A DNA stretch of 63,918 nt, the filler included, from Myxococcota bacterium (GTDB taxonomy: Bacteria; Myxococcota; Myxococcia; Myxococcales; Myxococcaceae), in assembly GCA_049322255.1 (NCBI GenBank). It is 3 parts of 3 records of this genome, joined end to end, with 100 filler letters (N's around TTAATTAATTAA, not from the genome) between each part and the next. Parts side by side here need not be neighbours in the genome. Positions count along the whole stretch, not along the records: positions 1 to 21,821 come from JBMORE010000073.1; 2 more parts are not named here. The stretch is one strand, 5' to 3'. Shown here one piece after another: positions 18,001 through 21,000 of the stretch. Position numbers: made by a program. Positions within the stretch are counted from its first letter, which is position 1. Each line of letters opens with the position of its first letter.

Positions 18001-21000
18001 GCCGACGTCAGCACCAACGAACGCTTGCCGGCGGTGAAGCCCTCTTGGAGTAACCCGGCGACCTCGATCGGCTGCGCGACGAGGGCGAAGCCTCCATCGC
18101 GCCAGCCTACCTGGTAGCAGCGCGCTGGGTGGGGACGCTCGGTGAGCTCCTCCACGAAGGTGGCGTGTTCCTCCAAGGCGGCCAGTGCGCTGGCCACCTC
18201 GCGCTCCTGGTGGGACTGCGAGGGAAGGGTGGGTGAAAGCTCCTTCAGCGCCGAGCCGAGGGCACGCAGCGCTGAACGCAGAAAGAGAAGCTCGCGCCGC
18301 AGAGGCTCGAACGTCGGCGAAGCATCGAGCCGGCGCTCACCCCCATAGGGCCCCGGTGGAAAGACCTCGCCCACCGCCAAAGTCAGGCGTTCCCTGGACT
18401 CGACCAAGGCCCGCGAAGCAGCGGCCAGCGGTGTCTCTTTCGCCAGGCGTAGGCGGAGCAGGCGCGCTTCCAGCTGAGCGAGCAGCTCCTCGGTCAGCTC
18501 GGCCGAGTAAGCCGAGGTGGCGGTGTCTTCCAGCTCGTGCGCCTCGTCGACGACGATGTGCCGCACCTCGGGGTAGCGCTCCGGCCAGGCGAGGGCGAGT
18601 GACTGGTTCACCACCAGGAGGTCGGCTGCCTTCGCCTGCGCCACCGCCGAGTGGTAGTAGCAGCGCTGGTAGTGCGGACAGCGTGGGCCCAAGGTCGCCG
18701 CGGCCTCCGAGCGTGTCGCCGCCGCCAACCTTGCCAACCCGGGGTAGCGCCCGCGGAACCAGTAGCTTAAGCGGTCTAAGTCTCCGTCGGCGCTGCGGCG
18801 TAAGAAGGCGCGCAGGTAGGCGCGGGGAGCGCGCTCCTCGTGCGGCAGCTCTTTGGCGCCCTGCGTGGAGGTCAGCTCCAGCGCCCGGCGTCGGCACAGG
18901 TAGTTGTTTTGGCCTTTGAGCACCGCGTAGCCGAACGCCCCCGCAGTCGCCTGGTGTAGCTTGGGCAAGTCCTTCTCCACCAGCTGGTCTTGCAGCGTCC
19001 GAGTGTGCGGGGCGACCGCGACCTTGATTCCGTTGCGCGCGGCGAAGAGCGCGGCGGGAGCGAGGTACGCCAAAGACTTCCCGGTGCCGGTTCCCGCCTC
19101 CACCGCCAGCGTCTCGCCTCGGTTGAAGGCCTGCGCCACTTCCCGAGCCATCGAGAGCTGTTCGGGTCTGGGAGTGAACCCCGCCGAGGTCCGCTCCAGC
19201 GCACCGCCAGCTCCGAGGAGGGACTCGAGCTCGGCGTCGAACACCGGGCGCACCCCTTCGGAGAGCGGAGTTGCTGCGGGCGAGAGCCGCTCGCGCTCGG
19301 GCCGCGCGGGGAGAAAGGGCGTCGAGGGGGTCAAGGTGAGGGTGGAGGGGGCCTGAACGCACAAGGCGTGCAAACCGCGCAAGAGCTCGACCAGCGCAGC
19401 TTCCCTTTGTGCACCGAGCAGAGGTTGGCTGGGAGCTGGGTCGAGCACCGCGAGCAAGTCGCGCAGGTCATCGGCGCGCGCCTCGCTGACGCACTTGTCG
19501 AGCGCGAAACGCAGGACCGCGAAGGTGTCTTCGCAGTCTTGGAGGGCGCGGTGTGCCGCCGCTTCGCCCACGTTGGCCCAGCGGACGGCCGCCTCGAGCG
19601 AGTGGCTGTCGAGCTCGGGGTAGAGGTAGTGGAGCAGCTCGCACGAGTCGAGCACCGGCGCGCGAAGGGGGACGAGCACCTCAGCGAGAAAACTTTCCTC
19701 GAAGGCGGCGTTGTGGGCCACCACCGTCCATCCACGTAAGGCCGCTTGCAGCTCCTGTCGGAACGAGGCGAAGGCAGGAGCCTCGCGCAAATCCTCGTCG
19801 CGAATTCCGGTGAGGCGGCGAATCGCCAAGGGCAAGGGCCGCGACGCGCGAAACAGCTTGGACAGCCGCCCGGTCACTTCGCCGCGCTCGACGAAGAGCA
19901 CGCCGAGCTCAATCACCTCGTCGCGGGAGGGGTCGAGCCCGGTCGTCTCCAAATCGACGAAGGCATGGTGCGTCCACAGCGAGGCGGCGCCGGACATCAA
20001 GTAGACCTCGACCGGTACATAGACCGGCCGAGGCCCCTCACAGAACCGGACGTGCGGGTTTCCCGCATCCGGCTCTTCGGTTGGTGGTTTCGTTCGGAAT
20101 GATGCTCCGAGGTGAGGTTGTTCAGCTTGTCGCCGCGTGGCGGCTCAGGGAGCGGGTTGAAGCGCAGCTTGCGCTGGAACTTCTCCCAGTCGAAGGAGTG
20201 CTTCTGGCTCCGTCGGTTGAGCCACTTGAAGAGGTGCCCGATGCAGACGAAGCGGTAGTGCGACAGCTTCGCTTCGTTGAAGCACACGCCGAAGTAGTTG
20301 AAGTGGCCGTTGAGCCGTGCACGTGCATCAGCCCAGAGCTGCCTCAGCGGCTTCTTGTTGCGCGTCGCCTTCACCCATTCGAGGAAGGCCTGCATGCTGC
20401 GGTGGAGTCTCTTCGCGGTTGTCTTGAGTTTCAGCAACCGGCCGCCCTGCTTGTCCCTGCCCCAGAAGAAGTCGAACCCGAGGAACGAGACGACCCCTTT
20501 AGGGGCTTTAGCCGAGAAGGACACGATGGTGCTCTTCGCGATGTTCAGCGAGAGCCCGGCCTCTTGCAGGCGGAGTTGCAGCGCCGCCTGCAAGGACCGA
20601 GCGGTTTCTTCATCGGTGAAGACGAAGACGGCGTCATCGGCGTAGCGGACGAACTCTCCTTTTCCGGCGTATTCCGCGTCGAACCAGCCGTCGAGGAGGT
20701 GATGCAGGCAGACGCCACCTCGCGATGGCGCTGCACGCAAGACTCGGTACCAGCAATGCGTCTTTTGCTGGGCGGGCCTGCTCGCCTGCCTCCCGGCAGT
20801 CGCTTTCCCGCTGGTCAGCGGCAACTTCGTGACGCACATGATGCCAACCTAGCGGATAGGTCCGACACTTGAAGACTCCGCGCCACAAGGGAAACGCATC
20901 TGCATCTCCCGGGCTTCGTGGCTTTGCTGAAGCTCAGCGCTCTCTCGTCGCGCGCTCCCGCCAGCCGGCACTGCCCGGCGTCCCTTTTGAGGGTTCTTGT

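Follow-up and report, generated by a model that had tools for sequence, protein, structure and literature searches.

An endonuclease-less group II intron lineage within ATG start codons, with candidate promoter targeting and coupled reading frames

The intron copy in the helicase gene

The window (the whole stretch of DNA analysed, 63,918 nucleotides with filler) comes from a Myxococcota genome of 4.85 Mb with a 64.7% GC content. It carries a helicase gene whose start codon is interrupted by an internally deleted group II intron. The features of the locus are:

17199..19997, minus strand: host gene, an intact DinG/YoaA-like exonuclease-helicase of 932 codons counted from the recreated ATG; 19995 is the first base of exon 2
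19995..19999, minus strand: TGATG stop-start overlap, the stop of the reverse transcriptase (RT) frame plus the recreated ATG (intron AT and exon 2 G)
19996..20837, minus strand: group II intron copy with an internal deletion, keeping 842 of about 1,900-1,970 nt (RF00029 and comparison with full-length relatives)
19996..20077, minus strand: domains V and VI, whose in-frame translation forms the C-terminal tail of the RT (RF00029)
19997..20839, minus strand: 280-codon frame that opens at the host ATG, crosses what is left of domain I and the RT/maturase C-terminal half, and stops with TGA at the intron end
20002, minus strand: branch A of domain VI (sequence)
20009-20005, minus strand: Shine-Dalgarno (SD)-like GAGGT within the domain VI stem (sequence)
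20633..20644, minus strand: YADD of the RT remnant (sequence)
about 20713, minus strand: deletion joint (comparison with full-length relatives)
20714..20837, minus strand: retained 5' 124 nt of domain I, beginning GTGCG (comparison with full-length relatives)
20838..20839, minus strand: AT, bases 1 and 2 of the host start codon and the end of exon 1 (sequence)
20846..20851, minus strand: TAGGTT, -10-like hexamer ending 6 nt ahead of the start codon's A and 8 nt ahead of the intron (sequence, conserved in orthologues)
20862..20867, minus strand: TGTCGG, belonging to the helicase gene's PafBC-type promoter (TGTCGG-N10-TAnnnT) as its upstream element (motif shared by exon 1 and 15 of 27 orthologues)

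The 842-nt element is bounded by GTGCG at its 5' end and ACTTGAT at its 3' end; exon 1 terminates in ...GGCATCAT and exon 2 opens with GTCCGGC. Excision in silico yields ATG TCC GGC and a protein beginning MSGAASLWTH. Domains V and VI match RF00029 with 52.3 bits at 19996-20077 (Rfam), and the RT remnant matches RVT_1 at residues 48-123, below the cut-off. Compared with full-length relatives (1,906-1,966 nt), the copy has kept nt 1-124 and nt 1252 (approximately) to the end; approximately nt 125-1251 of the reference are deleted, and with them the EBS1 loop, domains II-III and the N-terminal half of the RT. Because the EBS1 loop and domains II-III are gone, the window copy is predicted to be unable to splice. 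The survey's finding had placed the insertion between the second and third bases of the start codon and held that splicing restores the helicase ATG; the placement stands and extends far beyond this genome (see below), but restoration by splicing would not apply to this copy. The branch A is bulged and lies six bases from the intron end in folds, and the six bases previously reported between it (20002) and the 3' junction are present in the window sequence.

The 3' junction is bridged, with no difference in sequence, by contigs of one DNA run, possibly that of the source sample. The full-length intron is about ninefold deeper in the same run, and a multi-copy contig diverges from the window sequence at 20714 into full-length intron sequence. 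Among the matches listed, no contig of this run bridges the 5' junction or the deletion joint. A search for RNA runs containing this stretch listed none. The survey had worried about the pairing of exon 1 with the helicase gene, a concern that is resolved by the intron-free orthologues. The helicase (931 residues, with RNase_T, DEAD and Helicase_C_2 domains) is the single full-length copy in the assembly. Orthologues were taken from 27 of 29 helicase loci, two without the anchor motif being left out. Their start codon lies 11-13 codons above an FVDLETTG motif (12 in the window), and in 15 of the 27 the start is preceded at 6-13 nt by YGTCRG-N10-TAnnnT. The spacing is 6 nt in exon 1 and also in the closest orthologue, and the exon 1 motif equals the PafBC consensus tGTCgg(N10)tA(N3)T (PMC8635444, in its available text). 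The pairing is supported because orthologous starts carry the promoter motif of exon 1. The unbridged 5' junction and joint would allow an assembly chimera of an unrelated exon 1 and the helicase gene, but with the exon 1 motif shared by these orthologues, at identical spacing in the closest, and the 3' junction bridged, such a chimera is extremely improbable. From the promoter spacing, the exon 1 RNA is possibly just AT.

Junctions and relatives of the lineage

RF00029 has five places in this genome. The junctions tallied by the survey were recovered in full: all five 3' ends read ACTTGAT followed by G with an in-frame ORF, all four 5' ends read CAT followed by GTGCG, and the genes reported behind other copies are indeed those of a gamma-glutamyltransferase and an M16 peptidase. 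Across the clade to which these copies belong, G follows the intron at 34 of 37 3' ends (30/30 in a first set and 4/7 in a later one). The three non-G ends occur in two metagenome-assembled genomes (MAGs): one within a kinase frame, one without an ORF and one on a fragment. Of 31 5' ends, 27 follow AT, two GT and two other bases, and two of the four later-found 5' junctions are without AT. These exception copies fix the register as AT|G, since the intron still begins with GTGCG where exon 1 does not end in AT and still ends in ACTTGAT where A, C or T follows; the alternative register ATG| is thereby ruled out at both junctions. The 3' search pattern requires ACTTRAT, so that a stop triplet is present there by construction but its frame is not. 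One of 31 matches to it (L227) was left out as not being domain V, and a search with a 5'-end pattern returned unrelated matches only.

Behind 27 of the 37 clade 3' junctions at least 100 codons are open. An open stretch of 100 codons follows 33% of random ATGs, which makes ORF length by itself weak evidence; the assessment relied on domain position and orthologues. Pfam families were found in 19 of 28 scanned products, several of which begin at the first positions of the profile (PFK residue 3, DivIVA 2, SmpB 5); some G junctions are followed by short ORFs (15, 16, 19, 48 and 48 codons). The sole murF above the cut-off in genome G412 and the sole smpB in genome G706 sit behind such introns. 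A sister lineage has the same habit, with G after 14/14 3' ends (including one tandem copy and four ends whose ORFs are shorter than 20 codons) and AT before 8/8 5' ends, whereas only 1/20 outgroup introns has an exon ending in AT. The AT^G habit thus appears to be older than the clade and absent further out. As the copies are related, P values for such counts overstate.

The group IIB hallmarks are present: GTGCG...GAT ends, domain V, a bulged A in domain VI, an RT with YADD, and EBS1-IBS1 pairing. RVT_1 scores over the cut-off in full-length relatives. The encoded protein is an endonuclease-less RT/maturase whose ORF ends at the intron end; no endonuclease domain was found in any of the six clade proteins scanned. 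Several near-identical copies per genome suggest recent mobility. Within 401 genomes of its own phylum, the clade has members in three by protein and in six by 3' pattern (seven matched, one falsely), in addition to 4/351 genomes of a Bdellovibrionota sample and 4/331 genomes of the class of a Polyangiaceae MAG. Further members are found in Polyangiaceae, Kofleriaceae, Bdellovibrionota and Oligoflexia records and on metagenome contigs. The viral contigs and the E. coli genomes searched gave no match, the plasmids searched gave no clade member (best match 43% identity), and a profile search of representatives added no context.

In trees of the RT and maturase columns, the clade has a support of 0.926 (FastTree) and 75.9 (SH-aLRT) and adjoins the sister group (1.0 and 100). 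Both lie outside the references of classes D, g1, g2 and g3/F in both trees, which contain no CL1 sequence and take their class labels from the tables of PMC3552965; L300 and L301 were left out as being without a usable ORF. The alignment (A1) holds 33 of 46 near-full-length matches chosen for an extended C-terminus, so that the tail in 33/33 is no test of itself; the tree and the domain VI lengths are. Among labelled references, the disrupted intron of pRmeGR4b (taken as S.me.I4) comes nearest, with 42% identity over 311 residues; D, g2, g3/F and one g1 reference reach 32-34%, and the other g1 reaches 39% over 261. The available text of PMC5894124 calls the pRmeGR4b intron class E. Joining with this single class E reference is supported at 0.99 by FastTree and at 9.4 by IQ-TREE fast, and since the two trees disagree the lineage is likely, and not established, to be class E.

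Target pairing and promoter geometry

AU(G) is the sequence of the loop in the EBS1 position, and its pairing with the exon holds in 26/26 cases at -1 and -2 and in 23 at -3, and then in 16, 11 and 10 further out. EBS1 covaries with the exon end: in L342, whose exon reads GTCG, it is CGAC, and four ORF-less copies located at GT ends have ACUG. A C in the coordination loop, which we take from its position and not from covariation to be EBS3, matches the exon G. A longer EBS1 or an EBS2 was considered and rejected, as pairing fades after -3/-4 and no exon bases are conserved at -4 to -8. Predicted ATG starts make up 2158 of the 89048 ATGs in this genome (2.4%), and three to five paired bases cannot single out starts; the extra cue looks like the promoter.

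The 45-mers upstream of the sites are promoter-like in appearance. A TA-led -10-like hexamer ends 8-11 nt before the intron at 23/31 clade sites, where shuffles of the upstream stretches give an expectation of 6.7. The same test gives 7/8 for sister sites (3.1 expected), 8/20 for outgroup introns (6.2 expected) and 2/4 for ORF-less sites (0.9 expected), with the qualification that the -10 criterion was set after the first sites had been viewed and that related copies are not independent. If C is allowed in the first position, the hexamer is found at 26/31 clade sites at 8-9 nt, and some clade sites have TTGACT 17-18 nt further upstream. SD words precede only 2/31 clade sites. At sites in GC-rich hosts, the hexamer is present in 15/19 compared with 428/2158 predicted starts of this genome, and an SD in 2/19 compared with 754/2158, the background starts being crude gene calls. 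With a -10-like hexamer close by and SD words rare, the target genes look leaderless. Two sites that do not end in AT (L120 and L342) also lie 8 nt behind a TA hexamer.

An open promoter complex melts DNA from about -11 to +2/+3. Insertion at +2/+3 by an intron that needs single-stranded DNA fits such a complex, and we propose that the intron reverse splices into the single-stranded non-template DNA at its downstream edge. The complex would supply specificity beyond the few base pairs, and the insertion site would provide the intron with a promoter and a start codon.

The same distribution could arise if the intron inserted at any (C)AT^G by pairing alone and only harmless, expressed copies next to promoters survived. 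EBS1 and EBS3 do read AT^G, and a few copies lie elsewhere (L339, L342, L350/L359). We consider selection of this kind an unlikely explanation: with starts so small a share of ATGs, most near-identical young copies should then lie at neutral ATGs, intergenic or antisense, but the 5/5 and 4/4 junctions of this genome are at starts, and L342, with its altered EBS1, is still located 8 nt behind a TA hexamer. Guidance by the translation initiation complex or by nascent mRNA has been suggested for the groEL clade of introns, and could likewise replace promoter DNA as the cue here. Most copies do occupy a start codon precisely, and at a leaderless ATG, which is also the transcript start, genomics cannot fully separate the two cues. 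However, SD-led starts, which are the commonest initiation sites, are depleted among the targets, and the sites without AT retain the -10 spacing; guidance through translation therefore seems very unlikely to us, and targeting of the promoter remains our preferred reading.

Reading frames through the intron

The RT frame passes through domains V-VI, and its stop (TGA or TAA) overlaps the recreated ATG as TRATG. The length of domain VI is 2 mod 3 in all 21 distinct clade sequences (38, 41, 44 or 47 nt), whereas in the sister lineage, where the RT stops before domain V, domain VI lengths divide 8/5/1 among the possible remainders. The C-terminal tail has been lost from two proteins that nest within the clade. 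A second frame, the leader frame, begins with the exon AT and the intron G. Over the first 400 nt it is stop-free in 10 of 13 copies, compared with 0 and 1 of 13 for the other two frames, 1/9 in the sister lineage and 0/20 in the outgroup. In nine of the ten it runs for 147-178 codons through domains I-III and ends at the RT start region, where it is linked to the RT frame by TAATG (L041/L042, L044, L268, L359), by an ATG 8 nt on (L040, L120, L340) or by GTGA (L117, L197). The tenth is the decayed L280, where the frame continues. The leader frame is absent from L198 (intact RT), L342 (retargeted) and L358 (broken RT). The leader peptide is not conserved and shows local frame swaps that return to frame, and the frame is still stop-free at a median sequence identity of about 57% with many indels. 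The RNA fold is kept, with 45 of 97 pairs compensatory. For full-length copies, the idea that the RT is fused in frame to the host ATG was examined and rejected: the RT lies in frame 2, and its frame reaches up from the stop for only 482-495 codons in most of them and for 579 in L117, falling short of the ATG even there.

Chains of frames also persist in deleted copies. The window copy reads ATG-280-TGATG-helicase and L044 reads ATG-155-TAATG-415-TAATG-MurF, while L359, which lies off a start codon, has lost its chain. A stop-start overlap couples the translation of successive frames, and RNA that goes untranslated attracts Rho; a rho gene is present in this genome. In the derived clade that holds the window copy, three frames lie in series (host ATG to leader frame, RT frame and host gene) and would probably act as a relay: ribosomes covering the 1.9-kb insert would keep off Rho polarity, open the hairpin of domain VI and start again on the host gene, removing the cost to the host. 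Splicing would then be needed for mobility and not for host expression; the window copy, predicted to be splicing-dead, keeps a single 280-codon relay frame. In the sister lineage most copies at AT^G sites have neither a leader frame nor read-through, which shows that the AT^G way of life does not depend on the relay.

The absence of such frames from the sister lineage and the common ancestry of clade members are what one would expect if the frames were inherited accidents without function and host genes were restored mainly by splicing or by an SD in domain VI. SD-like words precede the ATG in domain VI in 10/21 clade and 7/14 sister sequences; as a general mechanism the SD was rejected, being held by only 10 of 21 clade sequences. 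Accident sits poorly with a stop-free frame kept through such divergence, with frame swaps that return to frame, with domain VI indels in threes only, and with chains retained before the helicase and murF but lost off a start codon, and we regard it as quite unlikely.

The anatomy of the AT^G lineage is well supported, and promoter targeting and the relay are strong inferences from the genomic evidence. Our overall reading, to which we assign a probability of roughly 0.6, is of an endonuclease-less group IIB lineage specialised on start codons directly behind a promoter, with open-complex targeting and, in the clade, a ribosome relay. The broader proposition is that a retroelement targets the melted promoter at +2/+3 of leaderless transcripts, leaving a 2-3-nt 5' exon, while its catalytic RNA doubles as a chain of coupled frames; this would be a fourth target specificity combined with splicing-independent harmlessness, and we hold it to be evenly balanced. 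If true, it would mean that a structured ribozyme is selected to stay stop-free, linking translation to splicing control, and would reveal a natural gene-trap that inserts at transcript starts and leaves even murF or smpB unsilenced. It would also probe the minimal length of a 5' exon.

Branching with an exon 1 of 2-3 nt is a point against the model as it stands. Annotation of such genes and introns is prone to a one-base shift.

Yeast Ty3 integrates at the transcript starts of tRNA genes, and the mitochondrial IIA introns aI1 and aI2 have a protein translated from the start of the upstream exon. Both involve different elements and machinery, and the RT of the full-length copies described here is coupled to the host start and not fused to it, unlike that of aI1/aI2. 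A literature search on group II introns in relation to leaderless genes, promoters, the open complex, translational coupling or start codons found no relevant report, although subscription papers, the intron database and supplements may list such introns; the available portions of PMC4028801, PMC3753933 and the bioRxiv 2021.09.28.462093 survey report no such targeting. Class E introns share the endonuclease-less RT/maturase and include the nearest labelled reference, taken as S.me.I4, and EBS2 is reported to be dispensable for splicing (PMC5894124, PMC3753933, PMC3552965, in the text available). They differ in that start-codon or promoter targeting is unreported in the same portions of these papers, and the 20 related outgroup introns are without it.

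Three target specificities of bacterial group II introns have been reviewed (homing sites, terminators and attC; PMC4424553, available text), and class C introns insert after intrinsic terminators or attC (PMC4424553; bioRxiv 2021.09.28.462093, in the parts available). The present lineage resembles class C, as described there, in being endonuclease-less, in its short IBS1, and in a target marked by a transcription signal and not by a long homing site; class C introns, however, lie behind terminators, whereas the introns described here lie at the promoter and start codon, the opposite end of the transcription unit.

The closest parallel in target site is the IIB1 clade of Avi.groEL and EcKTE56.groEL, which occupies initiation or termination codons and, in the available text of PMC12584367, carries an Ia insertion of 300-700 nt and an endonuclease-bearing CL1 RT. 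The groEL introns likewise lie between the second and third bases of the codon, which is recreated with the first G of the intron, and this 2025 paper terms their way of colonising start or stop codons unknown (PMC12584367). The two lineages are alike in being group IIB, at start or stop codons and in this register. They differ in that the present lineage is without an endonuclease and without the Ia insertion (its basal stem begins about 15 nt from the 5' end, in whole introns of 1,906-1,966 nt), and in that it is found in many unrelated genes, at promoter-adjacent SD-less starts, with coupled frames. Judged on these features, it is convergent with the IIB1 groEL clade and not a member of it, and represents an independent, multi-gene case of start-codon colonisation in which a concrete candidate cue, promoter geometry, is combined with short base-pairing rules.

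ORF-less copies and copies away from start codons

G410 carries four near-identical ORF-less intron copies of approximately 720 nt (L281, L284, L287 and L289). Their 5' junction reads GT|GTGCG and their 3' side ends in CTCTAT, followed by G (three of the four) or by ATG; EBS1, the intron loop that pairs with the exon end, is altered to ACUG, and the leader frame is absent from all four. These copies are possibly a satellite retargeted to GTG starts and mobilised by the full-length copies of the same genome.

L342 (G844:C115) is a full-length intron with EBS1 CGAC, inserted behind GTCG. 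There is no start codon at this site, yet it lies 8 nt downstream of TACGCG; the leader frame is shifted. At L339 (G890:C71:1857), a Ser/Thr kinase frame, in its catalytic-loop region, follows the intron 3' end, and the intron 5' end lies beyond the contig. This locus represents either an ectopic insertion or a rearrangement.

Tandem, fused, remnant and shortened forms

L130 and L154 are tandem copies in which the 3' end runs straight into a second GTGYG start. At L037 (G031:C40, 6911-5309), the first 410 nt of the intron are joined to a transposase-like ORF whose reading frame is that of the host ATG; the divergent neighbours of this locus resemble hflK/hflC. Intron remnants (domains V-VI alone or a short ORF-less core) precede intact genes at L039, L228, L361 and L038, where the gene start is the recreated ATG left behind. 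Within the window intron, one contig from sequencing run X1 has a joint skipping 615 bases (20099-20715), which is either a further deletion form or a graph artefact.

Probable leaderless starts and the helicase promoter

A cobalamin riboswitch match (34.5 bits) occurs at 43161-43380; because the window joins contigs (only 1-21821 being C73) and the match runs across the N spacers at 43196-43295, it may be an artefact.

Leaderless genes seem to be common in this organism (G000), since a TA hexamer stands at leaderless spacing before approximately 20% of ATG starts in crude gene predictions versus 6% of all ATGs. The helicase promoter (20846-20867) fits the PafBC motif of mycobacteria, TGTCGG-N10-TAnnnT; a motif of this type is also present in 15 of 27 helicase orthologues (from the intron-free loci L310-L338). 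This match and its conservation suggest that this family has a PafBC-type DNA-damage regulon. Both pafBC and its motif are mentioned for Myxococcus xanthus in PMC9705874.
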